DNA of 64,000 nucleotides from Nitrospirota bacterium (GTDB taxonomy: Bacteria; Nitrospirota; JACRHL01): assembly GCA_016212085.1 (NCBI GenBank), contig JACRHL010000003.1, positions 321,178 through 385,177 on the forward strand, read 5' to 3'. Positions 34,882-50,155 of this stretch are shown piece by piece. Position numbers and translations under genes: made by a program. The notes beneath the pieces are model-generated. The model searched no databases, was not told where the DNA came from, and saw nothing but the letters and a program-made list of their open reading frames with translations. The first letter of the stretch is position 1. Every line of letters begins with the position of its first letter.

Positions 34882-35922
34882 ATGCACGACGTGGTGCAAG
34901 ACTATTACGGGCGGCAGTTGCGGTCTTCCGAAGACCTCAAAACCTCTGCCTGCTGCGATCCGACGCGGGTTCCCGCTTGGCTGAAACCGCTGCTGGCCAA
35001 CATCCACGAGGAGGTGCTGGAGCGTTACTACGGCTGCGGCCTGATCTGCCCGCCCCTTCTGGAGGGGTTGACCGTGCTGGACCTGGGCTGCGGCAGCGGG
35101 CGCGACGTGTACGCCCTGGCCCAACTGGTGGGGCCGACGGGGCGCGTGGTGGGCGTGGACATGACGGAGGAGCAGCTTGCCGTGGCGCGCCGCCACTAGG
35201 CACATCACGCGGAGCTGTTCGGCTTTTCCAACGTGGCATTCGAGCACGGCTTCATCGAACGCCTCGACGCGCTGGACCTGCCGGCGGGCGGGTTCGACGT
35301 GATCGTTTCCAACTGCGTGGTGAACCTGTCGCCGGACAAGGATGCGGTGCTGGCCGGCGTGCACCGGCTGCTCAAGCCGGGCGGCGAGTTCTATTTTTCC
35401 GACGTGTACGCGGACCGGCGCGTGCCGGACGCGGTGCGGAACGATCCGGTGTTGTATGGCGAATGCCTGGGCGGCGCCCTGTACTGGAACGACTTCCTGC
35501 GCGCCGCCCACCGGGCCGGGTTCGCCGACCCCCGGTTGCAGGAGGACCGGCCCCTGGCGGTGACGGATCCGGAACTGGCGGAGCGGGCCGCTGGTGTCAA
35601 CTTCCACGCGGCCACCTGGCGCCTGTTCAAGCTGGACGGGTTGGAGACCGCCTGCGAGGATTACGGCCAGGCGGTGGTCTACCGGGGTACCGTGCCCGGT
35701 CACCCCAACCGCTTCGCGCTCGACAAGCATCACGACATCCAGACCGGCCGGGTGTTCCCCGTGTGCGGCAACACCTGGCGCATGCTGGCCGATACGCGCT
35801 TTGCGCCGCATTTCGCGTTCATCGGGGATTTTTCGCGTCACCACGGCCTGTTCGAGGGGTGTGGCGGAGGCATCCCGTTCGACCGCGCCGCCCCGCCGGA
35901 CACGCAAAAAGGGTGCTGTTGA
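34882..35922 (+). pseudogene. arsM: arsenite S-adenosylmethionine methyltransferase with in-frame TAG
   Basis: N-terminal Cys pair (TSACCDPT), SAM motif VLDLGCGSGRD, C-terminal Cys; single in-frame amber codon at 35197-35199 (ARRH*AHHAELF), frame otherwise continuous. Confidence 0.65.
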
Positions 35923-36010
35923 TGGCGTGGCGGCGGGCAGCGGTGGCGCCAATGACCGGAACGGTGAACAGGCCGTCGCGCCCACCGGCCCTCACCGGCG
36001 GGTGCGGCCC

Positions 36011-36250
36011 GTGACGCCCTTCCTGCGCGCCGCGTTCCGGCGCCCCACCGTCCTTGGCGCCATCCAGGTGTCGGTGGTGGTGGGGAGCATGCTGAACGTC
36101 ATCAACCAGGGTGAGGCGTGGCTCCACGGCGCGTCCGTCTCCGTGGGGCACCTGATCCTCAATTATCTGGTCCCGTACGGCGTGGCGACGTTCAGCGCGG
36201 CGCGCACCGAGCTGCGCCGCTGCCCACCGGACGAGGAGGGGCATTCATGA
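36011..36250 (+). CDS. NrtS-like small membrane protein (putative nitrate/nitrite transporter family)
   Basis: ~80 aa; FLRAAFRRPTVLGAIQVSVVVGSMLNVINQGEAW...LNYLVPYGVATF resembles the NrtS family from memory; GTG start. Confidence 0.4.
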   Translation: MTPFLRAAFRRPTVLGAIQVSVVVGSMLNVINQGEAWLHGASVSVGHLILNYLVPYGVATFSAARTELRRCPPDEEGHS

Positions 36251-37054
36251 CCATCGGCCCGCGTCGTCCCAGTTCAGCGAATGATGGTCGAACCCGTGCT
36301 CCAGGGTCGGCTTGACCACCGCGAAGTAGGGTGACACGTCAAAGTCCCGGGGGGTGAACAGGCTGTGGTGGCGGACTCGCAGTACCTCCTCCACGCATCC
36401 CCGGCAGCCGGGGCGATCCGCGTCCTTCCGGCCCACCAGGGGAAGAATGGGATAGCGGATCGACTGGAACGCCTGGGCGATGAGGGTGGAGCAGATGGCG
36501 CGGGTGGGATCGCCGCCGCCCAGGGCCAGCATGCGACGCCGGAAGCGTCCGGGAACGGGCGGGGTGGGGAACAGGTAACGCGCCAGGTCCACGACGTTGC
36601 GCAGATCGTAGCGGTCGCCGATGCGGGCGATGACGAATGCGGTCACCCGCCGCACTTCCGCCGGCGTCAGGCCGATCGGCCGGCAGATGCGGGTGGGCCG
36701 ATCGGCAAAGGCGGCGATGCCCACGGCACGCACGCCGTCCAGCGGATCCGCCTCCACGAACAGGCATGACGGCTTTCCGCCTGCCTCGGCCAGGTGGGTT
36801 CCCACGAACAGGGCCGCGTGGGTCCAGGTGGACTGGGTGAGGTAGCTGATGGCGGCGCTCAGGCGCGTGCCCCCCTCCACCAGCAGCACGTCGCCCGGCC
36901 TAAGGCAGGCCAGCAGCAACTCCGGCGGGGTGGGGCGCCCCGTGCCGTCCGTGTGCACCGGACGCGTGAGGAAGCGCGCCAGTCGTGTCCCGATCTGTTC
37001 CAGGATGCCGTTCACGGGCGGAGGGGCCGGGTGGGGGGAGGTGGCGCCCCCCAC
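36245..37054 (-). CDS. YiiX/YebB-like permuted papain-fold hydrolase (putative)
   Basis: GDVLLVEGGTRLSAAISYLTQSTWTHAALFVG block resembles the permuted NlpC/P60-like YiiX family; GTG start. Confidence 0.5.
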   Translation of the reverse strand: MGGATSPHPAPPPVNGILEQIGTRLARFLTRPVHTDGTGRPTPPELLLACLRPGDVLLVEGGTRLSAAISYLTQSTWTHAALFVGTHLAEAGGKPSCLFVEADPLDGVRAVGIAAFADRPTRICRPIGLTPAEVRRVTAFVIARIGDRYDLRNVVDLARYLFPTPPVPGRFRRRMLALGGGDPTRAICSTLIAQAFQSIRYPILPLVGRKDADRPGCRGCVEEVLRVRHHSLFTPRDFDVSPYFAVVKPTLEHGFDHHSLNWDDAGRWS

Positions 37055-37068
37055 CCGGCGGGACGCCG

Positions 37069-37626
37069 CTAAGCCGGCGTCCAGGCCTCATCCGCGAAGG
37101 CGGCGTCCACCGGCGTGCCCAGCAGGCGGTTGGCGTAGTTGCTCAACGTCTTCTGGGTCACGCCCACCACCACCTCCAGCGCCTGGGCCGGGGTGTAGCC
37201 TGCGGCCAGGAAGGCCTTGTGCTCGGCCGAGTCCGCCACATGGCCGCGCTCCCGCACCACGGCACGGGCGAAATCCGCCAGGGCGGCCAGCTTGGGGTCC
37301 GCCAGGGCGCCACCGCAGCGCATGGCGTCCACCACCGGGTCCGGAGCCCCGGCCATCTTGCGGGCGATCATGGAATGGGCGGCCACGCAGTAGGGGCAGC
37401 CGTTGTCGACGCTGGTGGCCAGTAGCACCACCTGGCGCTCGACCGGCGTCAGGCTGGTGCCCTCGAAGGCGTCCGCCACGGCCAGATAGGCGCCCAGGGC
37501 GGCGGGTGCGTTGGCCAGCCCGGCAATCAGGTTCGGGACGAAGCCGAACTTCCCCTTGACGGCCTGCAAAACGGGGCGGACCGCCTCCGGGGCGGTTTCC
37601 TGGGTGTGAAACGGGTAGGTGCTCAT
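37069..37626 (-). CDS. carboxymuconolactone decarboxylase-family protein (AhpD-like)
   Basis: Two CMD-like halves with CPYCVAAH motif; strong RBS aggagaa before ATG 37626. Confidence 0.8.
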   Translation of the reverse strand: MSTYPFHTQETAPEAVRPVLQAVKGKFGFVPNLIAGLANAPAALGAYLAVADAFEGTSLTPVERQVVLLATSVDNGCPYCVAAHSMIARKMAGAPDPVVDAMRCGGALADPKLAALADFARAVVRERGHVADSAEHKAFLAAGYTPAQALEVVVGVTQKTLSNYANRLLGTPVDAAFADEAWTPA

Positions 37627-37639
37627 GGATTCTCCTTTC

Positions 37640-38197
37640 CTAGAACGGGCTGCAGGTACCGGCCGGTTTCCGCGCCGACGGCTGGCAGGCGCATGGGTGC
37701 GAAGCGGCGGCCGACGGCGGAATCACCCCCTCGCGGGCGGTCTGGTGCAGAACCGGCGCGGCCTCCACCGCCTGGGCCAGCCCCGCCAGGACGCGTTCCA
37801 TCATTCCCCCCATCATGCGGCGCATCATCATCACGTCCATGAGCCAGCCCAGCGGGCCGAACCGCACCGTGTAGTCCAGGATCATGTAGGCTTCGGCGCC
37901 GCCCGCCGCGTCGCGCACGCCGAGGGTGGCGAAGGCGCGGGAGAGGGGCATGGAACTGTCGAATATCTCCACGCGGTAGCCCTCGCCCTCGTTCCAGGCC
38001 ACCACCCGCTCGCGCAGGAAGTTGCCATCCTTCAGGTCACAGCGGCGCACGGCGCCGATGCCGCACGCTTCCGCTGTCTCCTGATGCACCGCGCTCAGCA
38101 GCGGATGGAAGCGGTGGATGTTGGTGTAGTCGGAAATCCAGCGCCACACGTCCGCTCGGGGAGCGTCGACATGGCGGGAGCGGGTGATCTGTCCCAT
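37640..38197 (-). CDS. SRPBCC-family protein (polyketide cyclase/START-like)
   Basis: HVDAPRADVWRWISDYTNIHRFHP N-terminal signature typical of SRPBCC ligand-binding fold; ATG 38197 with agga RBS. Confidence 0.65.
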   Translation of the reverse strand: MGQITRSRHVDAPRADVWRWISDYTNIHRFHPLLSAVHQETAEACGIGAVRRCDLKDGNFLRERVVAWNEGEGYRVEIFDSSMPLSRAFATLGVRDAAGGAEAYMILDYTVRFGPLGWLMDVMMMRRMMGGMMERVLAGLAQAVEAAPVLHQTAREGVIPPSAAASHPCACQPSARKPAGTCSPF

Positions 38198-38339
38198 GGC
38201 CGATCCTGTGAAAATAGGTTGTACGGAGCACCCCGGCATGCCCTGGCCGAAAGACGCGACGGGTATTTCCGACGCGGGCTCTCTCCAACGGGTGCGACAG
38301 ATCGGTTAACACCCGGCGCCCTCTTCCTATTCCCGCCGC

Positions 38340-38540
38340 TCAGGCGTGAGGCCCGCGTAGCGGGCAAGTGCGGATTCCCAACACCCGGTACAGCGGACAC
38401 CAACCCGCCAGCGCCGTGCCCAGGAGAATCACCCCGATCCACCCCCAAGGGGTCTGCGGCCCCACGAACACGATGCTGACCAGTCCGATCCCCAGGATTG
38501 CGCGGGCGGCGCGATCCAATGTTCCAACGTTCTTGTTCAT
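38340..38540 (-). CDS. DUF2892-family small inner-membrane protein
   Basis: 66 aa; NVGTLDRAARAILGIGLV...GWCPLYRVLGIRTC pattern; perfect AGGAGG RBS. Confidence 0.7.
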   Translation of the reverse strand: MNKNVGTLDRAARAILGIGLVSIVFVGPQTPWGWIGVILLGTALAGWCPLYRVLGIRTCPLRGPHA

Positions 38541-38557
38541 CGGTATCACCTCCTGGA

Positions 38558-38690
38558 GTTCCCATGCAGTGTGTTGCAAAAGCTCTTCCCCGGCTTGTTC
38601 AACTCGAAACCGGAAAAGCGTGGTTTTCCGGTTTCTCCGGCGCCAGAAAAGCCTCTCACACGGATTGTCACCCTGCGGATGCGGGCGGGT
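38558..38690. repeat. partial family A repeat element
   Basis: ttgttcaactcgaaaccggaaaagcgtggttttccggtttctccgg closely matches the central hairpin module of the other family A copies. Confidence 0.45.
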
Positions 38691-38701
38691 CTGTAGCATC
38701 G

Positions 38702-39355
38702 CTACATTGCGGCCTGGTGCCGCGCCAGGGATTCGGCATCGACGATGTGAACCCCGCCACGGAACAGCCGCACCCATCCGTTTCGTTCATACTCCTTCAA
38801 CAGCCGGCTGACGACCTCCCGGACCGTGCCAAGCTCCACCGCCAGTTGGGCGTGGGTGGCGTGAACGGTGTCATCTCCGTCACGCCCTTCCAGCAGTTTG
38901 CGGGCCAGGCGTACATGGGTGCGCTCGAAGGCCAGTTCCTGGACCCGGCGCATCAGCCCGGCCATCCGGTCGCCGATCTGAGCGAAGACGAACCGTCGGA
39001 ATCCGACAGAATCCGCGAGCAAACGGTTGAAGACGTCCCGCGGCATGACGGCGGCGCGAACCTCCCCTTCGGCGATGCCCTGGGCGGGGTAGTCGGTCTC
39101 GCCCAGGAGGCAGGCGGTGGTCAGGGTGCAGGTCTGTCCCGAGCCCACGCGATACAGCACCACCTCCCGACCCTCGTGGCTCAGGCTGGTGACCGTTACC
39201 GAACCGGACACCACGAACAGGTAGTTCCGGCATGGGTCACCGCACTGGAAGATGGCGGCTCCGGGAGGAAGCGTGATCTCCCTGACCTGGGCCAAGGCGG
39301 CCTTCCATTCGGCGTCATTCAGCGTGCGCAGGGTGGTGAACGCGTTGAACCACAT
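38702..39355 (-). CDS. Crp/Fnr-family transcriptional regulator
   Basis: cNMP-binding beta-barrel N-terminus and C-terminal HTH (THAQLAVELGTVREVVSRLL); GGAGG RBS before ATG 39355. Confidence 0.8.
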   Translation of the reverse strand: MWFNAFTTLRTLNDAEWKAALAQVREITLPPGAAIFQCGDPCRNYLFVVSGSVTVTSLSHEGREVVLYRVGSGQTCTLTTACLLGETDYPAQGIAEGEVRAAVMPRDVFNRLLADSVGFRRFVFAQIGDRMAGLMRRVQELAFERTHVRLARKLLEGRDGDDTVHATHAQLAVELGTVREVVSRLLKEYERNGWVRLFRGGVHIVDAESLARHQAAM

Positions 39356-39436
39356 GCCTCGACCTCCACGATGCCGTTGACCTGTCGGCACGTCCCCGCT
39401 TGCCGGGATGGAGCATGGGGCCGCGCCGGTAAACAT

Positions 39437-39581
39437 GGGCACCTCTATTAACCGTCGCGAGCGCCCCGAGCGCAAGGCGGACTTAAGCGGAGAACCCGAG
39501 ACATATCATGGTGATAGGAGAGGGTTCGAGCACCGCTTAGGCGCAGCAATCGGGGCGCACAGCAGGTTAATAGAGGTGCCC
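39437..39581. mobile_element. 145-bp MITE, family B
   Basis: TIRs GGGCACCTCTATTAACC / GGTTAATAGAGGTGCCC; 4-bp duplication ACAT on both sides. Confidence 0.75.
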
Positions 39582-39713
39582 ACATGTGCCAGCCTCAATT
39601 TTGAGGATACCCCCCCTCCAATCGGCCACTCCATTCCCGGCCGGGTCGGAAATAGACCGCGCCCTCCCAATTGTTCACGGAGGTGAGTGCCCCACCCGGA
39701 GACGAGGCGCCGA

Positions 39714-40412
39714 ATGACTGGACCGATCCCCCTGCTTGAGAACCTGTACGACGTGCTGCCCTCCTACCTGGTGGGCATCGGCGCCGTGGTGTCCGCCGCC
39801 GTGTGCGGCGCGGCCATCGGCTGGGACCGGGAGCGCCTGAAAAAACCCGCCGGGCTCACCACCATGGCGCTGATCTGCGTGGGGGCGGCCATCTACACCC
39901 AGGCGTCCCTGCTGCTGGGGGGCGACGCGAACGACCCGGCGCGTGTGGCGGCCCAGATCGTCACCGGCATCGGCTTCCTGGGGGGCGGCGTCATCCTGCG
40001 CGAGCGGGGCCGGGTGAGCGGGATCACCACCGCCGCCACCATCTGGGCGGTCGCGGCGGTGGGCATCGTGCTGGGTGCGGGCTATCTGGCGGGCGGACTT
40101 GGCCTTACCGCCCTGGTGCTGGGCATCCTGACCGGGGTCAAGCGGCTGGAGCATGCCATCCTGGGCCCCTGCGCCGTGGGCGCGCTGGAGGTGGCCTTCG
40201 CGCCGGACGGCGGCCGGGCCGAGCTGACCCTGCGCGCCATCCTGGACCAATACGGGATCGACGACGGCGCCTACCGCTTCACGGACCTGGCGGACGGCGA
40301 GCGCGTCCTCACGCTCAGCTACTGCCCCGTGCACCGGCACCACCGGGGCGTCGCCGCCGAACTGGCCGCCCATCCGGCTGTGCGGCGCATGGCGTCCGGG
40401 GTGTCACCTTGA
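39714..40412 (+). CDS. MgtC/SapB-family membrane protein
   Basis: N-terminal polytopic region with GAAIGWDRE and TAATIWAVAAVG motifs; alternative GTG start 39687. Confidence 0.75.
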   Translation: MTGPIPLLENLYDVLPSYLVGIGAVVSAAVCGAAIGWDRERLKKPAGLTTMALICVGAAIYTQASLLLGGDANDPARVAAQIVTGIGFLGGGVILRERGRVSGITTAATIWAVAAVGIVLGAGYLAGGLGLTALVLGILTGVKRLEHAILGPCAVGALEVAFAPDGGRAELTLRAILDQYGIDDGAYRFTDLADGERVLTLSYCPVHRHHRGVAAELAAHPAVRRMASGVSP

Positions 40413-40435
40413 TCCGGGTTTGGGGTCCATTTGCC

Positions 40436-41344
40436 ATGACGGCAGCGCTGCTTGCGCTGACCGTCGGGGCGGCGTTGGCCGAGCAACGGAACGACTTCGA
40501 CCTGACCGGCGCGCTGGTGCCGCCGGAACATATCGTGTCCGGCGGCCCGCCCCGTGACGGCATTCCCGCCATCGATCGGCCGCGCCTTGTCACGGCCGGC
40601 CATGCCGGTTTCCTGAAACCGGCCGACCGGGTGCTGGGGCTGGCGCTGGACGGCGAGACCCGCGCCTACCCCATCGCCATCCTCAACTGGCACGAGATTG
40701 TCAACGATACGGTAGCCGGCCGCCCCGTGGTCATAACCTATTGCCCCTTGTGTGGCACCGGCATGGCCTTTGATGCCACCGTGGCCGGCAGGGCGCGCCG
40801 CTTCGGCGTCTCGGGGCTGCTTTACAACAGCGACGTGCTGCTGTATGACCGCGAGAGCGAATCCCTCTGGTCGCAGATCCTGGGCCGGGCGGTCAGCGGC
40901 CCCCTGAAGGGCGAATCCCTCGCCCCGATCCCCCTGGCCCATACCACCTGGGGCGACTGGCGGCGGCGCCACCCGGACACGGCGGTGCTCTCCACCAACA
41001 CGGGGTACGCCCGCGACTACGGGCGGGCCCCCTACGCGGGCTATGCGGACAGCCCGGTGGTGTACTTCCCCACCGGTGCCGTGGACCGGCGCTACCATCC
41101 AAAGGAGCTGGTGCTCGGGGTGGCGATTGGCGGCGTGTCCAAGGCCTATCCGTTCTCCGAACTGGAGCGGGCGGAGGGAACGGTCACCGACACGCTCGCG
41201 GGCCGCACGCTGACCGTGGTGTTCGACGCCGGGAACCAGACGGCCCGGGCGCTGGACGGGGACCGGGAGATTCCCTCGGTCATCGCGTTCTGGTTCGCCT
41301 GGCACGCCTTCCATCCCGAAGGGGCGGTATTCACCGCCCCATAG
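40436..41344 (+). CDS. DUF3179-domain secreted protein
   Basis: Signal peptide; GIPAIDRP...YCPLCGTG...YNSDVLLYDRESESLWSQ pattern remembered for DUF3179. Confidence 0.6.
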   Translation: MTAALLALTVGAALAEQRNDFDLTGALVPPEHIVSGGPPRDGIPAIDRPRLVTAGHAGFLKPADRVLGLALDGETRAYPIAILNWHEIVNDTVAGRPVVITYCPLCGTGMAFDATVAGRARRFGVSGLLYNSDVLLYDRESESLWSQILGRAVSGPLKGESLAPIPLAHTTWGDWRRRHPDTAVLSTNTGYARDYGRAPYAGYADSPVVYFPTGAVDRRYHPKELVLGVAIGGVSKAYPFSELERAEGTVTDTLAGRTLTVVFDAGNQTARALDGDREIPSVIAFWFAWHAFHPEGAVFTAP

Positions 41345-41370
41345 CGGGTTACAGGGCGGTTGCCGTTCCG

Positions 41371-42561
41371 TCAGAACGCCGTGCCCGCGAACAGCCACAG
41401 CTTGTCCGTGTCGGTGCCGAAATCGTCGGCGTTGTAGGTGGCGTATGCCACGCCGACCGTGTGGGGACCGAACGCGCGGGTGGCCTGGAGGTCGGTCTCC
41501 ATGCCATAGTCGGTGCCGCCGGAGTCGGACGTGAAGACATGGTGCACGCAGGTCAGCTTCAGCCCGGATACCGCACCATTCAGGGTGACCATCAGGTCCG
41601 CCAGGCCGCCGGGCGGCGTGGTCAGGAACTGGTCCGCCCAGCCGTTGAAGGCGTGCTTGGTGGCCAGGGGCGTCTGGAAGGCGTCGGTGCCGTCACCCTC
41701 CAGCACCTCGTACCCCACCTTCACCCCCGAGCCGTTCATGGAACCGGACACCTCGGCGAGCCAATAGCTCGTGTCGCCGATGCCGGAACCGGCGAACTCA
41801 GACAGGTCCGCATACTCGGCCGTGGCGCCGAAAAGGATGGCCCCCAGCGGGTAACTGCCCGCGTAGCGGAGCCCGACCGTCTGGCTGCCCGTGGCGGGCG
41901 CGCCATCGTCGTTGACGAAGTAGCCGTATGCCGTGGCCACGCCCGCTCCGGGGACATGCCACGCCACGTTGGCCAGATGGCTGTCGTGCCGGGTATCCCG
42001 GAAGGTGACGTCGTTCACCCGCCACAGGTAGGCGTAGGTGGCCCGCACCGACGCGGACGGTACGACGTCCAGGCGGACCGCGTCGTAGGTCTGTTCGTTC
42101 TGGCGGAACCCCACGTTGCCGACGAAGCGGCCGTCGCCAAGGACGATGCGCTGGCGTCCGACGGTGGCGTCGACGCCGTATGCGGACGCCATCAGCGCCG
42201 CCCGGTTCAACTCGGTGCCGGCGGGGTCGGCCACCACCGGCCGGCCTGCCTTGCCGTTGGTGGTGCTGTTGTATTCGTCGCCCTCCACGGTGGCGACGTT
42301 CTCGAACTCCACCACGGCCCGCGCGCCATGGAACGCCCCGGTGGTGTAGCCGAGCCGGGTGCGCAGGGTGGAGGCCTGCGCCGTGTCGGCGATCCCGTCC
42401 TGGTCCACCGTTTCGTACCGGTAGCGCAGGTCGAGGCTGGGGGTTCCGCCACGGATGGCGTCCGTCAGCCCGCCTGCGCCGGCGGGCGCCGCGAAGGCCG
42501 TGGATATTCCCGCCACCATGGCGATCAGGGCCGGAAGGGATTGACGCGGATCACGGTTCAT
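41371..42561 (-). CDS. outer-membrane beta-barrel protein (porin/DUF1302-like)
   Basis: Signal peptide, alternating amphipathic beta-strands, C-terminal aromatic residue (…LFAGTAF); GGGAG RBS before ATG 42561. Confidence 0.6.
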   Translation of the reverse strand: MNRDPRQSLPALIAMVAGISTAFAAPAGAGGLTDAIRGGTPSLDLRYRYETVDQDGIADTAQASTLRTRLGYTTGAFHGARAVVEFENVATVEGDEYNSTTNGKAGRPVVADPAGTELNRAALMASAYGVDATVGRQRIVLGDGRFVGNVGFRQNEQTYDAVRLDVVPSASVRATYAYLWRVNDVTFRDTRHDSHLANVAWHVPGAGVATAYGYFVNDDGAPATGSQTVGLRYAGSYPLGAILFGATAEYADLSEFAGSGIGDTSYWLAEVSGSMNGSGVKVGYEVLEGDGTDAFQTPLATKHAFNGWADQFLTTPPGGLADLMVTLNGAVSGLKLTCVHHVFTSDSGGTDYGMETDLQATRAFGPHTVGVAYATYNADDFGTDTDKLWLFAGTAF

Positions 42562-42583
42562 GGCTCGTCTCCCTGGCGAATGG

Positions 42584-43459
42584 TTACGGTCGTTGGCGAA
42601 AGCGTTTGAGGCCGTCCTGCATGGTTCGTTCCGAAAAGAAGCGGTCCGGCAGGCCGGCATTGACCCGGACATCGCCCATTTCCAGGGTCGTGGCGTCGCC
42701 GGAGCGGGTGTCGCGCGCGGCGACCCGGTCCCACACCCAGACGCCGTCCACCTGTCGCCAGGTGAACGCGACCTCCTTCCACGTGCCGTCCGGCCTCAGG
42801 TAGCGGGTGAGCAGCGGCAGCGCATCGCTCCGCGATACCCACGTACGCACCTTGGCATAGGGTGACTCGGCATCTGTCGGGACGCTGTCGATCACCTCGG
42901 CAAGCTGGCCGGAAACCACCTCGGTTCCCGTGGTCTGGTGGCCGCCCAGGGCGGAGGCGCGCATTTCCAGCTCGGTCCGCCTCAGCACGGAGGCATCGAA
43001 GGGATCGGTCTCGGCGGTGCCGTGACCGTGCGTGTGGCGGTGCGGTTGCGTCATCCGGCGCACGGTCCGCAATTCGGGGATGTACAGCCACGCCTCCTCG
43101 CCACCGGTGGTCTGGAACCACCCCATGTAGGCGAACCCCTTGGCGGTGGCGGGCTCCTCGCTGAAGAAGATGGCCTTGGAGGTATATTTCGAGCCCGCCG
43201 GATAGGGCTTCCAGAACATGACGTACACCAGCCGCCGGGGCGCCTCGCCGGGCCGGGAGGTGGTGAACGTCAGGCGCGCCTCGATGTCGCCGGCCGCGCG
43301 CGTGGCGGCGGACCGCGCCATCCAATCCGCCGCCCCCGTCCCCTCGGAAAGGGCCGGGGAAGCGGTCAGCGCCGCGGCGATTGCCGCCCACATGGCGACC
43401 GTGCGGGCGGTCGCCATGTGGGCGCGTCCGGGCATGCTCCGTCCCAGCCAGCCGCGCAT
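42584..43459 (-). CDS. LolA-like outer-membrane lipoprotein-sorting-family protein (DUF1329-like)
   Basis: Secreted ~290-aa protein with LolA-like beta-rich profile; start ambiguous (43459 / 43417 / 43393); abuts upstream cytochrome stop. Confidence 0.5.
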   Translation of the reverse strand: MRGWLGRSMPGRAHMATARTVAMWAAIAAALTASPALSEGTGAADWMARSAATRAAGDIEARLTFTTSRPGEAPRRLVYVMFWKPYPAGSKYTSKAIFFSEEPATAKGFAYMGWFQTTGGEEAWLYIPELRTVRRMTQPHRHTHGHGTAETDPFDASVLRRTELEMRASALGGHQTTGTEVVSGQLAEVIDSVPTDAESPYAKVRTWVSRSDALPLLTRYLRPDGTWKEVAFTWRQVDGVWVWDRVAARDTRSGDATTLEMGDVRVNAGLPDRFFSERTMQDGLKRFRQRP

Positions 43460-43461
43460 GC

Positions 43462-44103
43462 TCAGCGGAGGGTGTGCAGGTAGGCGGCCACCGCCGCGCG
43501 GGCGCGGTCATCCATCGGGAAGGTGGGCATGAAGGTGCCCGGCTTGATGGCCTGGGGATCCTTGAGCCACGTGGCCTCCCATTCCGGGTAGATTTTGGCG
43601 CCGACGCGGGTGAGGTCCGGGTAGCGGCTGCGCCCCTCCGTCCCGATGCGGTGGCAGGCGCGGCAGTCGAATGCGCCAACCAGGCGCTCCCCGGCCACCT
43701 CGGGAGACGGTGCGGCGGCGACGATGGCGCGATGGTCCACCGGTGTCGCCAGGCTGCTCAGGTAGGCGATCAGGTCGGCCAGTTCCTGGTCCGACTCCCA
43801 CTCGAAGGTGGGCATGTCGGTGCCGGGAACCACCAGGCTCGGATCGCGCAGCCAGTTCTCGATCCATTCGGGTTTTCTGCGCACGGCCAGTTGGGTCAGA
43901 TCGGGGCCGACCTGCCCCCCCTTGTGACGGATCGAATGACAGCCCTTGCAGGCCCGTTGGGTGAACACCTTCTCGCCTTCGGCCACCCGTCCGGGGGGCA
44001 GGCCGTCGTCATCATCCGCCGCCCATGCCGGATTGGCGAGGGCGAACAGCGCGAGGGCCATCATCAACGCGGGCGTGAATCCTATCCAGCGCTTGAAACT
44101 CAT
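43462..44103 (-). CDS. dihaem c-type cytochrome
   Basis: Signal peptide; two CxxCH sites (CKGCH, CRACH), each followed by a conserved Met-containing segment. Confidence 0.8.
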   Translation of the reverse strand: MSFKRWIGFTPALMMALALFALANPAWAADDDDGLPPGRVAEGEKVFTQRACKGCHSIRHKGGQVGPDLTQLAVRRKPEWIENWLRDPSLVVPGTDMPTFEWESDQELADLIAYLSSLATPVDHRAIVAAAPSPEVAGERLVGAFDCRACHRIGTEGRSRYPDLTRVGAKIYPEWEATWLKDPQAIKPGTFMPTFPMDDRARAAVAAYLHTLR

Positions 44104-44375
44104 TGTGTACATCCTCTTTGGATCGTGACGCGTGGTGGACCACCCTCCGGGCATCGCGTCGCGACGGATGCCAGGCGTGGCCCAACCCTGTTCCCGCCGG
44201 ACCGGGTGGGAGACGCGGGGAGGGGAATCCCGGCCCGGCGGGATGGACCGGCGGAGACCGAATGCGCGGATCGGGATGGAGGGCGATCCGCGCGCCGCCG
44301 GTCCAGGACCGCGCCCGGACAGCGCGCGACGACTGCGTGCGTGGCGCTGCCCGGACACGGATCCAACCCAGGCCG

Positions 44376-44936
44376 TTACATCGCGCCCGGTACCGGCGTC
44401 GGCACGGTCTTGGCACCACCCGGATCGACCTTCTTGCCGCTGGCGAAGGAGGTCACGTAGGCCGCCAGATCCACCGCCGCCTGGGAATTGCGGTCGAGCG
44501 GATCACCCTTGAGGAAGCTCATGATGCACATGTTGTCCATGCCCATCAGGTCCACCACCGCCTTCATGGGGCCGGCCGGCTTCGGGAAATGGCTGGCGGC
44601 GGTCTTCAGCGTGGGGATCGCGACCTTCATGGTCATGCCCTTCCACTCCATGTCCGCCGCGCCGCCGATGGTGTTGCCGCCGGGGTGGCAACTGGCGCAG
44701 CTCTGCCCCGTCTTGTTGTGGCCCAGGGAGGTGTCGTTGAACAGCACCTTGCCCCGCTCCACGGATGCCTTGAGGGTGTCCGGCTCCATGGTCATCATCA
44801 TGGTCATCATGGCCTTGATCTCGTCGGGGGGCAGGTAGGGGTCCATCCCGCCCTCGGCGAAGGCCAGCCAGGCGGGGCCGGCGAGTGCGGCCGTCAGGGT
44901 GGCGCCCAGTACGAGTCGTTTGTAAATCGGCTTCAT
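44376..44936 (-). CDS. monohaem c-type cytochrome
   Basis: Signal peptide; haem site CASCH preceded by GKVLFND (peroxidase/TsdA-like context); RBS ggaggag. Confidence 0.75.
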   Translation of the reverse strand: MKPIYKRLVLGATLTAALAGPAWLAFAEGGMDPYLPPDEIKAMMTMMMTMEPDTLKASVERGKVLFNDTSLGHNKTGQSCASCHPGGNTIGGAADMEWKGMTMKVAIPTLKTAASHFPKPAGPMKAVVDLMGMDNMCIMSFLKGDPLDRNSQAAVDLAAYVTSFASGKKVDPGGAKTVPTPVPGAM

Positions 44937-44976
44937 CTCCATCTCCTCCATGCTGGGAATCCCGGCCGGGATGGCC

Positions 44977-45109
44977 GGGCGACTAAAAACTACTGCGCGG
45001 CTCGATTGCCGCGTTGGGCGGTGCCCGCACTCTCTCCACGAGATGTCTCGGGTCATGCGCTCCGTCCGCCTTGTGCCCGAACCATTCGCGTCGGTTGTTG
45101 GCGGTACCC
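44977..45109. mobile_element. 133-bp MITE, family B (degenerate copy)
   Basis: Degenerate termini GGGCGACTAAAAAC / GGTTGTTGGCGGTACCC; internal match to family core. Confidence 0.55.
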
Positions 45110-45160
45110 GATACGACACGGATGGTCGCACCGATGGAGGTTGCGGGACCGTAAGCGGGC

Positions 45161-45868
45161 TTACGTTTCGGCACGAAACACCTCAAGCGCGCCGCGATCG
45201 AGAATCCGGATGCTGCGCCGGTCGAAGGAGACCACACCCTGGCTCCGGAACGCGCCCATGGTGAGGCTGACGGTCTCGCGCGTGGAGGCGATGAGGCTGG
45301 CCATTTCCTGATGGCTGAGGCCGGGCCGCAGCTCGATGTCGTTCCCGGCCGGCCGGCCCATCTGGTCGGCCAGTTCCAGGAGCAGGTCGGCCAGGCGCGC
45401 GGAGACATCCTTGAACAGGAGGCGCTCGATACGGTTCTCGAAGCGCCGGAGGCGCAAACCGATGAGCTTGGTCAACCGGATGGACAGGGCCGGCCGGGCC
45501 GCCATCATGGCGGCGAAATCCTCACCGCGGATGATGCATATGGCCGCGTTGTCCATCGCGAACGCGTGGGACTCATGGGTTCCGGCGTTCATGGCCGCCA
45601 CCTCGCCGAAGATCTCCCCCGGCCCGAGGATCGCCAGGGTCAGTTCGCGCCCATCGGGGAGCAGTCGGGAGATCTTGATCCGTCCGGCCTTGAGGAGGTA
45701 GACGTGCTCGCCCGGCTCCCCCGCCCCGTAGATGCATTCATGCCGCGCCACGGATGCCATGCGGGTGATCTCGCCCATGGCCTTGAGCTCGTCAACGCCC
45801 AGGTCGGCGAACAACTGAATCTGCTTGAGGAACCAGATCTTCGTGAGGGGGGATAGCACTGTCTGCAT
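45161..45868 (-). CDS. Crp/Fnr-family transcriptional regulator
   Basis: cNMP-binding domain (GEPGEHVYLLKAGRIKISR) and C-terminal HTH; upstream of the cytochrome operon. Confidence 0.8.
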   Translation of the reverse strand: MQTVLSPLTKIWFLKQIQLFADLGVDELKAMGEITRMASVARHECIYGAGEPGEHVYLLKAGRIKISRLLPDGRELTLAILGPGEIFGEVAAMNAGTHESHAFAMDNAAICIIRGEDFAAMMAARPALSIRLTKLIGLRLRRFENRIERLLFKDVSARLADLLLELADQMGRPAGNDIELRPGLSHQEMASLIASTRETVSLTMGAFRSQGVVSFDRRSIRILDRGALEVFRAET

Positions 45869-46150
45869 AGAGATCGGCTCTCGACCAGGACATCGAATCG
45901 AATGGAAAACCGCAAAGACAACCTCTTGCCATAAACAGCGGGCCACCTGTCGCTTATTCCGACTGAACCGCGTGGCTTGGCGCGGCACCATGACGCGGCC
46001 GCACCCCGTCGAAAGGGAGGGGGCCGCCCGAATGGAAGAAATTCGCCGCCACGGCGGATTAATGGAACCAGGGCGTCGCACGGCGCTTGGATCCAGGGAC
46101 TGTTCGGAACGTGAGGGCACCCGACCGTGGCGCATACCCCATCGCCCCCC

Positions 46151-47011
46151 ATGCCATCGGACAAGGCCATATTCCGGCCGATGCTGACCCTGGCCGCGAT
46201 GGTCGCGTTTGCCGCCAATTCGGTATTGTGCCGGCTGGCGCTCACCGAGACGGACATCGGCCCCGCCGCCTTCACCGCCACGCGCCTCGCCACCGGCGCC
46301 ATCGTGCTGTGGATCGTTCTGGCATTGCGCGGCCGACCGAGGGGGGCCGCGGGAAGCCGTGCCGGCGCTATCTTCCTGTTCTGTTATGCCGCGGCATTTT
46401 CCTTTGCCTACGTCGATCTGCCGACCGGCACCGGAGCGTTGCTCCTGTTCGGCGCGGTCCAGTTGACCATGATCGTCTGGGGAATCCGGAGCGGCGAGCG
46501 CCTGAACCGTGTCCAGGCGGGGGGGCTTCTCGCGGCGTCAGGGGGCCTGGTATGGCTTCTAATGCCGGGAATCTCCGCCCCGCCGGTGGGGACCGCCATG
46601 ACCATGTTTGGCGCCGGCGTGGCCTGGGGCGCCTATTCGTTGTTGGGGCGGGGGACGGGCGATCCCCTGGCGGCCACGGGCGGCAACTTTCTGCTTGCGC
46701 TGGCACCGGCGCTGGCATTGGTGGTCACGGCGTGGCCGCATCCGCGGTGGGACGGGTTGGGCATGGTCTATGCCGCGCTGTCCGGTGGCGTGGCCTCGGG
46801 GCTCGGCTATGCGGTCTGGTATGCGGCCCTGCGCGGGCTGTCGGCCACGCGGGCGGCCACGGTGCAACTGTCGGTCCCCCTGATCGCCGCGGTTGGCGGG
46901 GTGCTGTTCCTGTCCGAACCATTCACGGCGCGCCTCGCCGTCGCTTCGGTTCTCATTCTTGGTGGCATCGCGCTGGTGGCGGTCACGCGAGGAGGTGTCG
47001 GCAAGCCTTGA
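46151..47011 (+). CDS. DMT-superfamily (EamA-like) transporter
   Basis: Ten predicted TM helices in two EamA-like halves; start uncertain (46127 GTG / 46151 ATG / 46181 ATG). Confidence 0.65.
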   Translation: MPSDKAIFRPMLTLAAMVAFAANSVLCRLALTETDIGPAAFTATRLATGAIVLWIVLALRGRPRGAAGSRAGAIFLFCYAAAFSFAYVDLPTGTGALLLFGAVQLTMIVWGIRSGERLNRVQAGGLLAASGGLVWLLMPGISAPPVGTAMTMFGAGVAWGAYSLLGRGTGDPLAATGGNFLLALAPALALVVTAWPHPRWDGLGMVYAALSGGVASGLGYAVWYAALRGLSATRAATVQLSVPLIAAVGGVLFLSEPFTARLAVASVLILGGIALVAVTRGGVGKP

Positions 47012-47128
47012 GCACCGTGGGAACGCTGGAAGAGGCCGAACATCCCTCTCCGTATTCCGTCCGGACCTGGCCGGCGCCCGAGCCGTGCCCCATTGACCAG
47101 ACTCCACACGCAATAAAGGCCGTTCGGG

Positions 47129-47323
47129 CTATTGGCCGAGTTGGCGTGGCGGGCACGGCGTGCTGCCGAACGAGCAGAACACGCAGCAATCCCCCTGGCG
47201 GGGCCGCAGCATGGTTCCGCAGCCCGTGCACCGGTAGAAGAACTGGCACGCGTCCGTGGGCATGGCCTCGGTTTTCCGGTGTCCGCAATGGGGGCAGGTG
47301 AGGGTGGAACTCAGGATCGGCAC
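47129..47323 (-). CDS. small cysteine-rich protein (CPHCG ... GDCCVFCS), putative metal-binding
   Basis: 64 aa with 8 Cys; GTG start preceded by AGGAGGAA; last gene of the mer-type operon. Confidence 0.5.
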   Translation of the reverse strand: MPILSSTLTCPHCGHRKTEAMPTDACQFFYRCTGCGTMLRPRQGDCCVFCSFGSTPCPPRQLGQ

Positions 47324-47523
47324 GACGGTTTCCTCCTGATCAGGGCCCATGCGATCATGCCCACGAAGCATGCCAGGGCCGGCAGCAACACGTAGTTCAG
47401 CCACCCCACCCACGCCGACAGGCCCAAGGCGCCCAGCAGGATCACCAGCGCGGGCGTGAAGCAGCAGACGGCGGCGAGGGTGGTGCCGGCGATTCCGGTC
47501 CCGAGCAGTCTCTTGTCCGTCAT
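47311..47523 (-). CDS. merF: mercury transporter MerF-like
   Basis: 70 aa, two TM helices, vicinal Cys (LAAVCCFTPALVILLG), C-terminal Cys; ATG overlaps merB stop (ATGA). Confidence 0.75.
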   Translation of the reverse strand: MTDKRLLGTGIAGTTLAAVCCFTPALVILLGALGLSAWVGWLNYVLLPALACFVGMIAWALIRRKPSCRS

Positions 47524-48302
47524 CGTGATGTCCTTCGCGGGTTGGATGCAAGGGTTGAAAGCGGCGCCAGGAGCGGCGCGAAGATGGCCTTGCCGACCTG
47601 GAGCCCCTCGTCGATGGAGAGGCGCACACCCGGCGCGCCCCCTGGTTGAGATTGGCGCCAGGATACGAGGTGCTCGTCGGAGCAGAAGAACGCCAGCGCC
47701 GGGCAGAGGGTGTCGGCGGCACAGCCGCCGGTGTTCCTCGCCCCCGCCCAGACCACGGCGCCCTCGGGCGCCACGGCCTCCAGGGTAGCGCCCCGGTCTC
47801 GGGTGGTGACATGGACGGCCGCGCCGCAAGTGGCGCAGGCCGAGTCGATGGCGGTGTCTGTGCGATACATGGCCCCGGCGCCCAGGGCGTCGATGGCGCA
47901 CATGGCGTTCAGCACCTGGCCGCCCAGCCGTACCCGGTGCCCGGTTTCCCGGTCCCGGAACGGGTAGGCCCCCGTCACGTCGCCGTGTGCGTCCAGCACC
48001 ACCAGGTCGCGCCCTTCCAGTTGCCGCAGCAGGCGGCGTACCTCGTCCAGCGGCAGGTCGGCGGCGAGGTGTTCGACGGAAGGGGCACGGCCCCGATCCG
48101 CATAGCCATCGAGCACGGCCCGCCGCACGCGGTCCTCCGCCTCCCCCATGCCGGTCCAGCACCGTTCGGCGTCGAATGCGGCGAGGATCGCGGCCAGTGC
48201 CCGACGGGCCGCCTCCGAGGTGATTGCCGACCAATCCGGGAAGGTCACGCCGGGTCCGATGGAGATTTCGAGGGGGGTCCGGGTGGGTCGCGGTATGTCC
48301 AT
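47520..48302 (-). CDS. merB: organomercurial lyase
   Basis: Catalytic-region match (NAMCAIDALG with Cys/Asp, later Cys cluster); ~45-aa N-terminal extension; GGAGG RBS before ATG 48302. Confidence 0.7.
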   Translation of the reverse strand: MDIPRPTRTPLEISIGPGVTFPDWSAITSEAARRALAAILAAFDAERCWTGMGEAEDRVRRAVLDGYADRGRAPSVEHLAADLPLDEVRRLLRQLEGRDLVVLDAHGDVTGAYPFRDRETGHRVRLGGQVLNAMCAIDALGAGAMYRTDTAIDSACATCGAAVHVTTRDRGATLEAVAPEGAVVWAGARNTGGCAADTLCPALAFFCSDEHLVSWRQSQPGGAPGVRLSIDEGLQVGKAIFAPLLAPLSTLASNPRRTSR

Positions 48303-48322
48303 GCGCTGGCCCTCCATGCTCA

Positions 48323-48465
48323 GGGCACCTCTATTAACCGTCGCGAGCGCTCCGATTGCAAGGCGGACGGAGCGGAGAACCCGAGACATATCTGGGTGAT
48401 AGGCGAGGGTTCGAGCACCGCCCAACGCAGCAATCGGAGCGCGCAGTAGGTTAATAGAGGTGCCC
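48323..48465. mobile_element. 143-bp MITE, family B (inside mer operon, between merP and merB)
   Basis: TIRs GGGCACCTCTATTAACC / GGTTAATAGAGGTGCCC; 4-bp duplication CTCA on both sides. Confidence 0.75.
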
Positions 48466-48466
48466 C

Positions 48467-48748
48467 TCACTCGACCGGCCGCGAGGGGTAGCCGGCGTTG
48501 GTCGTCGCCCGGGTGAGGGCCCCCACGTCCGTGAGCACATCGTCGAACGTCACCACGGCTTGCTTGTGCAACAGGGACACCTTGACCGCCTTCACGCCGG
48601 GAACATGGGAAAGGGCCTTTTTCACGGTGATCGGGCAGGTGACGCAGGTCATCCGCTCCACCCCCAGGGTGACGGTCCGCTCCGTCGCGATGGCGTTTCC
48701 GGTGGACACCAGGAGAGCGACGGCCACCAGGATCGGTACAAGCTTCAT
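48467..48748 (-). CDS. merP: periplasmic mercury-binding protein
   Basis: Signal peptide plus HMA motif GMTCVTCPITVKKAL; 93 aa; AGGAGGG RBS. Confidence 0.85.
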   Translation of the reverse strand: MKLVPILVAVALLVSTGNAIATERTVTLGVERMTCVTCPITVKKALSHVPGVKAVKVSLLHKQAVVTFDDVLTDVGALTRATTNAGYPSRPVE

Positions 48749-48768
48749 CGGATCGTCCCTCCTTCCGT

Positions 48769-49155
48769 TCAGACACCCCCGTACAGGGGGGCCAGGTAGG
48801 GCAGCGCCAGGATCGCCAGCACCAGTAGCGCCGCGCTCCACAAGGCAATCTTCACCATCCGCCCGGAACCGGGCCGGGTGCACTCCCCCTCCGGCCCGCA
48901 GGCGGCCGCCGGCTTCCGGTAGGCGAGCCGGAACCCGGCGGCGAGCAGGACGACGGTCAGGGCCATGAAGTAGGGCTGGTACGGCGCCAGGGCCGTCAGC
49001 CCGCCCATCCAGGCGCCGCCCAACCCCAGGCTTACCAGCACCAGCGGCAGGATGCAGCAGGACGAGGCGGCGAGTGCCCCCAGCACGGCGCCGCCGGCGA
49101 CCACGCCGCGCCGGGCATGACCGCCGCCAATGTGCTCTCCACCCGCGTCCTTCAC
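48769..49155 (-). CDS. merT: mercuric ion transport protein
   Basis: First TM helix with vicinal Cys (LAASSCCILPLVLVSLG), second Cys pair (CGPEGEC); GTG start 49155 overlaps upstream stop (GTGA); alternative ATG 49218. Confidence 0.7.
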   Translation of the reverse strand: MKDAGGEHIGGGHARRGVVAGGAVLGALAASSCCILPLVLVSLGLGGAWMGGLTALAPYQPYFMALTVVLLAAGFRLAYRKPAAACGPEGECTRPGSGRMVKIALWSAALLVLAILALPYLAPLYGGV

Positions 49156-49418
49156 AGCGCCCGACCGACGCCCGCGGCTCGCAACCGCGCCTCGTCCACC
49201 CCCGCGCCCGCACAGCATTGGGCCAGGCGGCCATCCACCGCCACCGCCGGGAGCGCCCGCACCCCCAGATCGGCCGCCTTCGCCGCCACGGCGGGTGCGC
49301 GCATGTCCAGCACGCTCACCGCGCACGCGGGGCAGGCGAGCCGCTCCACGAGGCGGACCGCCTCCTCGCACACGGGGCACCCGGCGCTGAATACCTCGAC
49401 CCTGCGTTTGTCGGTCAT
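49152..49418 (-). CDS. thioredoxin-fold protein with CPxC active site
   Basis: 88 aa; RVEVFSAGCPVCEEA...LPAVAVDGRL resembles small thioredoxin-family proteins; GGAGGAA RBS; first gene after the mer promoter. Confidence 0.6.
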   Translation of the reverse strand: MTDKRRVEVFSAGCPVCEEAVRLVERLACPACAVSVLDMRAPAVAAKAADLGVRALPAVAVDGRLAQCCAGAGVDEARLRAAGVGRAL

Positions 49419-49518
49419 CGTTCTTCCTCCCGACTTGCGTGGCCGCCGCCCCCGGAAAACGGGTTTGGCGGCCGTGCGGTTCCATACCTGGCAGGGGCCG
49501 CGTGCCCCCTCTTCTGCT

Positions 49519-49549
49519 ACGATAGAACCTGTAGTGGCTACAGGTTCAA
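49519..49549 (-). promoter_or_regulatory. MerR-type promoter/operator: -35 TTGAAC, 19-bp spacer containing dyad, -10 TATCGT
   Basis: On the minus strand TTGAAC-(19 bp)-TATCGT; the spacer holds the perfect inverted repeat GAACCTGTAG-tgg-CTACAGGTTC (49525-49547); lies between divergent merR and the mer operon. Confidence 0.6.
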
Positions 49550-49566
49550 GGGGGGAGCGGAAAAAA

Positions 49567-49989
49567 ATGGGCACGGAAGCGGATTCGGTCTGTTCCATCG
49601 GGGCGCTGGCGGCGCGTACCGGCGTCAACGCGGAGACGATCCGCTACTACGAGCGGATCGGGCTGTTGCCCCGGCCGCGGCGCACGGACGGCGGACATCG
49701 CCTGTACGACCACGGCCAGCGCAAGCGGCTCGTCTTCATCCGGCGGGCGCGGGAGCTGGGCTTCTCGGTGGAAGAGGTGCGGGAACTGCTACGGCTGGTG
49801 GACGGCGGCGATCACACCTGCGCCGAGGTGAAATCCGTCACCGTGCGTCATCTGGCCGACGTGCGCCGGAAGCTCGCGGATCTCGGGAAGCTGGAGCGGA
49901 CCTTGGGCACGATCTCCGCGCGCTGCGCGGGCGGACTGGTGCCGGACTGCCCCATCCTGGATGCGCTGTTCGAGGACGGGCTTGGCTAG
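49567..49989 (+). CDS. merR: Hg(II)-responsive transcriptional regulator MerR
   Basis: N-terminal HTH (IGALAARTGVNAETIRYYERIGLL), metal-binding Cys triad (HTCAEV ... CAGGLVPDCP); GGGGAG RBS. Confidence 0.85.
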   Translation: MGTEADSVCSIGALAARTGVNAETIRYYERIGLLPRPRRTDGGHRLYDHGQRKRLVFIRRARELGFSVEEVRELLRLVDGGDHTCAEVKSVTVRHLADVRRKLADLGKLERTLGTISARCAGGLVPDCPILDALFEDGLG

Positions 49990-50155
49990 CAGGTTGTTGA
50001 AAAACGGCGTTTTTCGGCATGACTGCGTCCGGTACCGGGAGGTACCGGCGGATTTCACGCGGGCAAGCGCCTGGAATCCGGAGAAACCGGGAAACCGCGC
50101 TGTTCCGGCTTCAAGTTGAAAAAGGCCACGGATGGACTTCTTCAACATCCCGCCG
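49986..50155. mobile_element. hairpin-rich mosaic repeat element, family A (copy 4, opposite orientation)
   Basis: Starts at merR stop: CTAG|CAGGTTGTTGAAAAACGG...; ~80% identical to the reverse complement of copy 1. Confidence 0.55.

Follow-up and report, generated by a model that had tools for sequence, protein, structure and literature searches.

We describe here a five-gene locus that we tentatively read as encoding a Crp-family-controlled periplasmic oxidoreductase of the sulfur type, to which a solute channel and a LolA-like accessory protein with a His-rich loop were recently added. The locus lies in a 64,000-nucleotide (64-kb) stretch of a Nitrospirota bacterium contig (JACRHL010000003.1), hereafter the window. 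Its genes run on the minus strand, between positions 41371 and 45868, in the order regulator, monohaem c-type cytochrome, dihaem c-type cytochrome, LolA-like protein and outer-membrane beta-barrel. The coordinates of all five genes were verified, and coordinates and domains agree with the gene content given by an earlier sequence-only reading of this DNA, i.e., a Crp-family regulator, the two cytochromes, a LolA-like protein and a barrel of ~400 amino acids (aa) with a C-terminal Phe. As judged by eye, each of the four products encoded after the regulator has a signal-peptide-like N terminus and lacks a lipobox. The block recurs in identical form on an independent Logan contig (L001).

The monohaem cytochrome is predicted to be a one-domain SoxA/TsdA-like protein

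The monohaem cytochrome gene (44376..44936, minus strand) starts behind a GGAGGAG ribosome-binding site, which gives a predicted periplasmic protein of 186 aa; translation could also begin from an ATG at 44951. The protein has a single CxxCH motif (CASCH), so there is no second haem domain in the same polypeptide, and it matched the SoxA/TsdA domain PF21342 (28.2 bits, cut-off 27). A word-index search recovered about 90 cluster representatives of its family, at 49-100% identity and most of them at 55-81%. An alignment of 20 homologues (A1) showed that the CxxCH motif and a second cysteine, Cys137 in the context [MQ]NNMC, are invariant (20/20), that a Met-rich N-terminal helix (MxxMMMxM) is nearly so, and that a C-terminal PVPGAM motif is kept. 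The Met-rich segment is a conserved, modelled helix and not a low-complexity tail.

The best structural and profile matches of the protein were to TsdA, a thiosulfate dehydrogenase/tetrathionate reductase. Foldseek comparison of its AlphaFold2 (AF2) model (predicted local distance difference test score, pLDDT, 76) ranked TsdA first (E=1.7e-5), followed by TsdBA and SoxA (3e-3 to 2e-2), and a profile of the family searched against the PDB matched TsdA at E=7.6e-4, with its CxxCH aligned to that of TsdA haem 1. In the profile alignment, the invariant distal Cys of the family aligned gap-free to TsdA Cys123, in RIGDCFERSLNG (RIGDC motif). Previous work showed that the catalytic S-thiosulfonate of TsdA forms on the haem-ligand Cys, and assigned roles at the thiosulfate site to Arg109, Arg119 and Ser127, of which Arg119 does not vary among TsdA and SoxA proteins (PMC4423706). 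The haem of the monohaem protein is, by this alignment, probably ligated by His and Cys.

The likeness to TsdA and SoxA has limits. TsdA has two haem domains, whereas the window protein has one, and the window protein adds the Met-rich helix and the PVPGAM tail. Furthermore, the Arg that lies four residues ahead of the Cys in the SoxA/TsdA family is Met or Gln here. With the thiosulfate-binding residues of TsdA replaced, free thiosulfate is probably not the substrate. In sum, the monohaem protein combines a predicted fold of the SoxA lineage and an aligned Cys with the loss of one defining SoxA/TsdA feature, and its family is probably a new one-domain variant of that lineage that acts on something other than free thiosulfate.

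The two cytochromes form a conserved pair

The second cytochrome gene (43462..44103, minus strand) encodes a predicted periplasmic, dihaem class-I c-type cytochrome of 213 aa, with the haem motifs CKGCH and CRACH and two Cytochrom_C domains (80 bits), which is presumed to be the electron-transfer partner of the monohaem protein; it is also FixO/CcoO-like. A separate dihaem neighbour as probable electron acceptor recalls TsdB, which accompanies TsdA. The pair likewise resembles SoxAX (monohaem SoxA of types II/III plus SoxX), in that the monohaem protein has a SoxA-family fold and the first domain of the dihaem protein nearly reaches the SoxX model TIGR04485 (57.6 bits, cut-off 61). However, the partner in the window is dihaem and not monohaem. 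The window protein is also much shorter than the known SoxA proteins.

A scan for the cytochrome family, taking one genome per species, gave 24 loci, which belong to Nitrospirota, Thermodesulfobacteriota and 'Deltaproteobacteria' metagenome-assembled genomes (MAGs). A dihaem homologue was found immediately downstream of the monohaem gene at ~17 of these 24 loci, with the order inverted in L034, and at most of the remaining ones the contig stops at the monohaem gene. The monohaem and dihaem genes are a conserved core unit. Homologues of the window regulator, at 37-53% identity, lie upstream of the pair in L014, L015, L022 and L033, and in L017 and L027 the gene immediately upstream of the monohaem gene, and co-oriented with it, encodes a DUF3179 protein. 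At 10 loci the dihaem gene is followed by a gene for a Ycf48-like BNR lipoprotein, in the slot that the LolA-like and barrel genes hold in the window.

At marine loci of the Nitrospiraceae/UBA2166 type, the monohaem gene is present in 2-3 tandem copies, which in Nitrospiraceae are followed by genes for a BNR protein, a second dihaem cytochrome, SoxY (ending GGC), SoxZ, a small cytochrome c, a YncE-like propeller and a Ycf48-like lipoprotein (L031, 7896-16256; L032, 7308-15568; L012, ~7970-15925; also L016 and L029). SoxY and SoxZ were both detected beside cytochrome homologues in L012, L031 and L032, and SoxZ alone in L016; this linkage to soxY, with its C-terminal GGC, and soxZ is a further likeness to SoxAX systems. 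In UBA2166-type Nitrospirales with soxYZ, other sox genes were reported as not found (PMC12342949). A Pfam census of 138 neighbouring proteins at 20 loci returned the Ycf48-like BNR family 8 times and Crp, SoxZ and an extra cytochrome c 4 times each; among the 25 most frequent families listed there was no metal, copper, porin or LolA-like family, and a copper or metal signature around the pair was accordingly rejected.

Genes for small Thioredoxin_3 proteins, DUF3179 proteins with a CxxC motif and AhpD/CMD-family proteins recur by the cytochrome pair in L017 (3-4433), L019-L021 and L027 (4632-6811). The window, too, holds a DUF3179 and a CMD/AhpD-like gene, and this recurrence hints at thiol-redox chemistry.

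The barrel is a solute channel of the Alginate_exp and OprD/Occ type

The last gene of the block (41371..42561, minus strand), preceded by an AGGGAG ribosome-binding site, encodes an outer-membrane beta-barrel of 396 aa that ends in FAGTAF. PF13372 (Alginate_exp) was the only family to match it at E<=0.01 (26.8 bits, cut-off 25.2). Its AF2 model (pLDDT 83.5) has 18 strands, and Foldseek matched it to Occ/OprD, Campylobacter MOMP and AlgE at about E=1e-14 to 1e-10, the lowest value being 2e-14, with only 11-17% sequence identity to the solved Occ and AlgE members. By model and family match, the barrel is an Alginate_exp or OprD/Occ-type solute channel, with the 18 strands and C-terminal Phe of such proteins. 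The sequence-only reading had placed it in DUF1302 (PF06980); hidden Markov model assignment does not bear this out, since PF13372 was the only match and the fold is Occ/AlgE-like.

Homologues of the barrel are numerous, and the closest, at 44-65% identity, lie near nitrate/nitrite assimilation genes. Those at 63-65% stand beside genes for assimilatory nitrate reductase, sulfite/nitrite reductase and a nitrate transporter, and those at 44-46%, among them homologues in Candidatus Tenderia electrophaga and Thiohalobacter, beside NirBD-, NasA- and NrtABC-type genes. This setting argues for a small-anion channel. It also distinguishes the window barrel from the known OprD/Occ and AlgE channels, as does a link to cytochromes that is unique to the window: no cytochrome or LolA-like gene was present in the five barrel-homologue contexts that were read. 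In contrast to AlgE, no alginate (alg-type) genes are among the annotated neighbours in the window. One homologue (51% identity; L008, 5147-13266) lies beside a P-type cation ATPase gene and near an MgtC gene, and the window barrel is two genes from MgtC, so that some link to Mg or other cations is possible.

The LolA-like protein and a syntenic locus with a different cassette

Between the dihaem and barrel genes, a gene at 42584..43417 (minus strand), with further possible starts at 43435 and 43459, encodes a predicted secreted LolA-like protein of 277 aa without Cys or a lipobox. It carries a His-rich/acidic loop (HRHTHGHG...DPFD). Its subfamily (58 representatives at E<=1e-30) consists of soluble, mostly Cys-poor proteins with a variable His-rich/acidic loop as the hallmark. 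The protein itself matched only PF17131 (95.6 bits), and relatives at 34-37% identity give faint or weak matches to PF07044 (DUF1329). Thus, where the sequence-only reading had called it a LolA-like, DUF1329-like protein, the first term holds and the second applies to more distant relatives only. We propose that it may serve as an accessory binder or shuttle.

Its nearest relative, at 54% identity, comes from a Leptospirillia MAG and lies at a syntenic locus, L010. There, the gene order is a Crp-family regulator, a 352-aa secreted Met/His-rich protein, a cupredoxin and the LolA-like protein, with DUF3179 and MgtC genes on the opposite strand, followed by polyketide-cyclase-like, CMD and Peptidase_C92 genes. 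The cupredoxin (120 aa, motif C-x2-H-x2-M) and the 352-aa protein are encoded at 8195-9796, with integrase and Prim-Pol genes upstream; neither Pfam and NCBIfam nor PDB sequences gave a match to the 352-aa protein. An NrtA-like gene adjoins the regulator, and mer genes are absent. The window therefore shares the frame of L010, but cytochromes replace the cupredoxin cassette and the barrel is added. In L038, from another sample, the barrel is 87% identical to that of the window and the LolA-like, barrel and DUF3179 genes stand in the same order.

Elsewhere, the LolA-like and barrel genes were found at none of the 24 cytochrome loci (BLAST and profile search, E<=1), and the synteny search for the four-gene block proposed by the sequence-only reading did not recover it there. 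A general linkage between LolA-like proteins and cytochromes was also rejected, as a metagenome scan yielded only two distant loci, one of which has VIT1, GGDEF-EAL, YfiR and TonB-receptor neighbours. More remote LolA-like relatives lie among unrelated genes; P0123 and P0124, for instance, adjoin a FemAB-like gene. The combination of cytochromes, LolA-like protein and porin occurs in a single lineage only and is of uncertain meaning.

A barrel encoded beside a LolA/LolB-like secreted protein recalls the DUF1302/DUF1329 envelope systems, to which a Ycf48-like BNR and an RND protein also belong, as does the Ycf48-like BNR gene that follows the cytochrome pair at 10 other loci. The window differs from these systems in the family of its barrel, in that its LolA-like protein matched PF17131 and not PF07044, to which relatives give weak matches, and in that window-type barrels and LolA-like proteins also occur apart in relatives. 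The window has no Ycf48-like BNR gene, and no search was aimed specifically at an RND exporter.

Regulator, candidate operator and transcript organization

The first gene of the locus (45161..45868, minus strand) encodes a Crp/Fnr-superfamily regulator of 235 aa with cNMP_binding (71.5 bits) and HTH_Crp_2 (65.2 bits) domains and the Crp domain. Its best NCBIfam matches, NtcA (87 bits, cut-off 245), FixK and CRP, were all far below the cut-offs. A palindromic box, CGTAAGCCCGCTTACG (GTAA-N6-TTAC; NtcA/CRP-like), lies at 45150..45165, overlapping the stop codon of the regulator gene, and is a candidate operator. The pattern GTAA-N6-TTAC occurs once in the window, against 0.03 occurrences expected, and fits the NtcA consensus, GTA-N8-TAC. 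An exact TGTAA-N6-TTACA was present at the equivalent site, where the regulator gene ends, in L010, L014 and L033, and in L015 with one mismatch, and it is the only block conserved across the aligned intergenic regions. Because this box is conserved and the regulator recurs upstream of the pair, the adjacent Crp-family regulator is likely to control the operon. In L010, the regulator homologue lies upstream of the LolA-like operon.

The sequence-only reading had suggested Fnr control. Control by the adjacent Crp/Fnr-superfamily member is likely, but it is not of the Fnr kind: the regulator has just two scattered Cys in its 235 residues and hence no FNR-type Fe-S cluster, and neither the CRP consensus nor the FNR box (TTGAT-N4-ATCAA) found a good match, the best match to the FNR box having 4 mismatches.

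The spacing of the genes, called tight by the sequence-only reading, is so for the last three only. The gap between the dihaem and LolA-like genes is 2-44 nucleotides (nt), according to which start is used, and that between the LolA-like and barrel genes is 22 nt; these short gaps and the ribosome-binding sites tie the three genes together. In the intervals that separate the cytochrome, LolA-like and barrel genes, a consensus scan of the operon strand found no terminator-like site, and these genes are probably co-transcribed. In contrast, the monohaem and dihaem genes are separated by 272 nt (44104..44375, minus strand), compared with 3-80 nt at other loci. This non-coding spacer is predicted to be highly structured, with four long hairpins, detectable inverted repeats and a minimum free energy of -157.9 kcal/mol, compared with -133.2 +/- 5.2 for shuffled sequences (z = -4.7). 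Rfam gave no match to the spacer and, for the operon as a whole, nothing near threshold; the spacer also lacks any coding signal and is not repeated elsewhere in the window or in the collected loci. A decayed gene in the spacer was rejected, as the only matches were to low-complexity Pro/Arg sequence. The regulator and monohaem genes are 224 nt apart, with a predicted terminator-like hairpin and T-run between them (44996..45013, minus strand; consensus scan).

Genomic setting

Genes between ~36 and 50 kb have a G+C content at third codon positions (GC3) of 0.78-0.87, compared with 0.91-0.96 elsewhere in the window, which suggests that the region (~36000-50000) is an acquired island. A succinate dehydrogenase/fumarate reductase cluster at 30.6-34.3 kb forms its left border.

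Convergent to the operon, a plus-strand gene at 40436..41344 encodes a DUF3179 protein (PF11376, 322 bits) with a CPLC motif. DUF3179 genes adjoin in the window, L010 and L038, and this recurrent neighbour is possibly linked in function to the operon. DUF3179 is named in reviews of prokaryotic selenoprotein families.

The region also holds a CMD/AhpD-like gene (37072-37722), an EamA transporter gene and a second Crp-family regulator gene (38702-39475, minus strand), which lies between a polyketide-cyclase-like gene and MgtC and is absent from L010. On the other side of the operon, 47132-49989 encodes MerR on the plus strand and, on the minus strand, MerT, MerP, MerB, MerF and a GDCCVxC protein; it also contains a small thioredoxin-like open reading frame. 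No merA was seen among the genes annotated around this cluster, and MerB without MerA nearby is unusual. An ArsM-like frame (34825-35922, plus strand) is broken by an in-frame TAG (35197-35199) and is a probable pseudogene or assembly error; a selenocysteine reading of the break was rejected because the stop is TAG and not TGA.

A proposed mechanism and the evidence against it

In the mechanism that we propose, the monohaem protein would be the enzyme. The Cys on its haem would be the reactive centre, and S-S bond chemistry would proceed via a Cys adduct, as in TsdA and SoxAX. The dihaem cytochrome would accept the electrons and hand them to the respiratory chain. The substrate would be a sulfur species other than thiosulfate or a carrier thiol such as that on SoxY, the latter idea being put forward because homologues adjoin soxYZ in marine Nitrospirales. 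The barrel, drawn from a clade linked to nitrate and nitrite, would pass a small, probably anionic, substrate or product over the outer membrane, and the regulator would act via the TGTAA-N6-TTACA box with which its own gene ends.

A bolder version, which we offer as speculation and think unlikely to be correct, casts the cytochrome pair as a 'mini-SoxAX', a so far unrecognised initiator of sulfur oxidation with a non-polar active site devoid of the arginines that bind thiosulfate, that would be the missing partner of the orphan SoxYZ in UBA2166-type Nitrospirales. In the window, together with the channel and the LolA-like protein as a carrier, it would form a complete uptake-plus-oxidation system for a sulfur substrate of low solubility or bound to metal, such as S8, polysulfide or a metal thiolate.

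Several observations weigh against a sulfur-type oxidoreductase with an acquired channel. The positions of TsdA Arg109, Arg119 and Ser127 are occupied by Pro, Met/Gln and Phe in the monohaem family, and haem ligation is not revealed by sequence alone. The scores of the monohaem protein on PF21342 and of the barrel on PF13372 barely exceed their thresholds. Unlike SoxAX loci, the 64-kb window has no SoxYZ, SoxB or other sulfur gene; candidate SoxY and SoxZ matches in it were rejected, being only to low-complexity Pro/Arg sequence. As the LolA-like and barrel genes are absent from 24/24 cytochrome loci, only one lineage links them to the cytochromes, and L010 has a cupredoxin and an uncharacterised protein where the window has cytochromes. 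Finally, the structured 272-nt spacer and the terminator-like hairpin mean that a single transcript is no more than probable.

Alternative explanations

One alternative is metal homeostasis, in which the cytochromes, the LolA-like protein with its His loop and the channel would handle or oxidise a periplasmic metal (copper, mercury or another), with the Met-rich helix and the His loop as metal sites. We judge this to be unlikely, although the near-invariance of the helix in the monohaem family, the loop that typifies the LolA-like subfamily, the exchange of cytochromes for a cupredoxin and a Met/His-rich secreted protein in L010, and the presence of MerR/T/P/B/F, the GDCCVxC protein, MgtC and the ArsM-like gene on the island all speak for it. 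A precedent is the copper-response cluster of M. xanthus, which combines cbb3-type c-cytochromes with a His-rich cupredoxin (PMC3707914). However, the neighbour census placed SoxZ, Ycf48-like and Crp families, and no metal family, among the 25 most frequent listed, the fold and Cys alignment indicate SoxA/TsdA chemistry, the Met-rich segment is a modelled helix rather than a low-complexity tail, and mer genes are missing from L010. The absence of the LolA-like and barrel genes at all 24 other cytochrome loci, the occurrence of barrel relatives without LolA-like genes and of LolA-like relatives without barrels, the island-like GC3 and the integrase and Prim-Pol genes near the L010 locus are what would be seen if these two genes were an envelope module of the DUF1302/DUF1329-like kind, unrelated to the cytochromes and beside them by chance on a mobile island. 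The cofitness of DUF1302, DUF1329, Ycf48-like BNR and RND exporter genes in other bacteria (Price et al., bioRxiv 10.1101/072470) counts for such a mosaic as well. Nevertheless, a chance neighbourhood of this sort seems distinctly improbable to us. The gaps of 2-44 and 22 nt, the ribosome-binding sites and the lack of a terminator-like site join the dihaem, LolA-like and barrel genes, and the LolA-like gene follows a Crp-regulated electron-transfer cassette both in the window and in L010, the two cassettes differing in composition. The Ycf48-like protein, a partner in DUF1329 systems, comes after the dihaem gene at 10 loci, which hints at a real functional slot.

A nitrogen-oxyanion or nitric oxide (NO) module would have the channel admit nitrite or nitrate, a Cys-ligated haem bind or convert NO or nitrite, and an NtcA-like regulator in control. 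The assimilation clusters around the closest barrel relatives fit this idea, as do NtcA as the best regulator model, a box that matches GTA-N8-TAC, the NrtA-like gene beside the regulator in L010 and the expansion of the monohaem family in Nitrospiraceae. We give it little weight, since the NtcA score of 87 is far under the cut-off of 245, no nitrite or NO reductase gene is nearby, the linkage that recurs elsewhere is to soxYZ and not to N-cycle genes, and many of the hosts are non-nitrifying Thermodesulfobacteriota or 'Delta' MAGs. Least credible, and in our view very improbable, is a porin-cytochrome conduit for metal or sulfur redox, passing electrons to the outer membrane or across it, the role suggested by the sequence-only reading. 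The cytochromes and the barrel do belong to one probable operon, an arrangement that recalls MtrCAB, PioAB/MtoAB and Cyc2, where c-type cytochromes are likewise encoded beside an outer-membrane barrel. These systems differ from the window locus in haem count and in barrel size and family: the conduit barrel MtrB has ~26 strands and in Cyc2 cytochrome and porin are fused, whereas the window barrel has the 18 strands of Occ/AlgE solute channels and no CxxCH, the cytochromes are unfused, and only 1 + 2 haems are present. A barrel homologue in the electroautotroph Candidatus Tenderia electrophaga would favour a conduit, but this homologue sits in a nitrate assimilation cluster and was therefore discarded as evidence of electron uptake. 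Cys-ligated haems of the TsdA/SoxA type, which the monohaem protein resembles and with which it shares an aligned Cys ligand, are reported to have potentials several hundred mV under the thiosulfate/tetrathionate couple (PMC9562282), which also counts against a conduit. The pairing of cytochrome and barrel is not conserved, being absent at 24/24 other loci, and the barrel is a generic porin of the 18-strand OprD/AlgE type whose nearest relatives lie in nitrate/nitrite assimilation clusters that lack cytochromes. From the role first suggested, sulfur redox stays plausible for the cytochromes, given the SoxA/TsdA fold, the aligned Cys and the soxYZ neighbours, but the data do not support electron transfer across the outer membrane.

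Implications

For extracellular electron transfer, the outcome is negative and removes a false lead. If the sulfur-type oxidoreductase reading is correct, the window illustrates how, on a metal-resistance island, a periplasmic module of this kind can come to be combined with a LolA-like protein and with a solute porin. The monohaem family may explain how soxYZ are used in some Nitrospirales. More broadly, a widespread, unannotated family of ~185 aa, hosted by Nitrospirota, Thermodesulfobacteriota and groundwater 'Deltaproteobacteria' MAGs, would extend the SoxA/TsdA group of Cys-ligated haem enzymes to a minimal, one-domain form with another substrate pocket.

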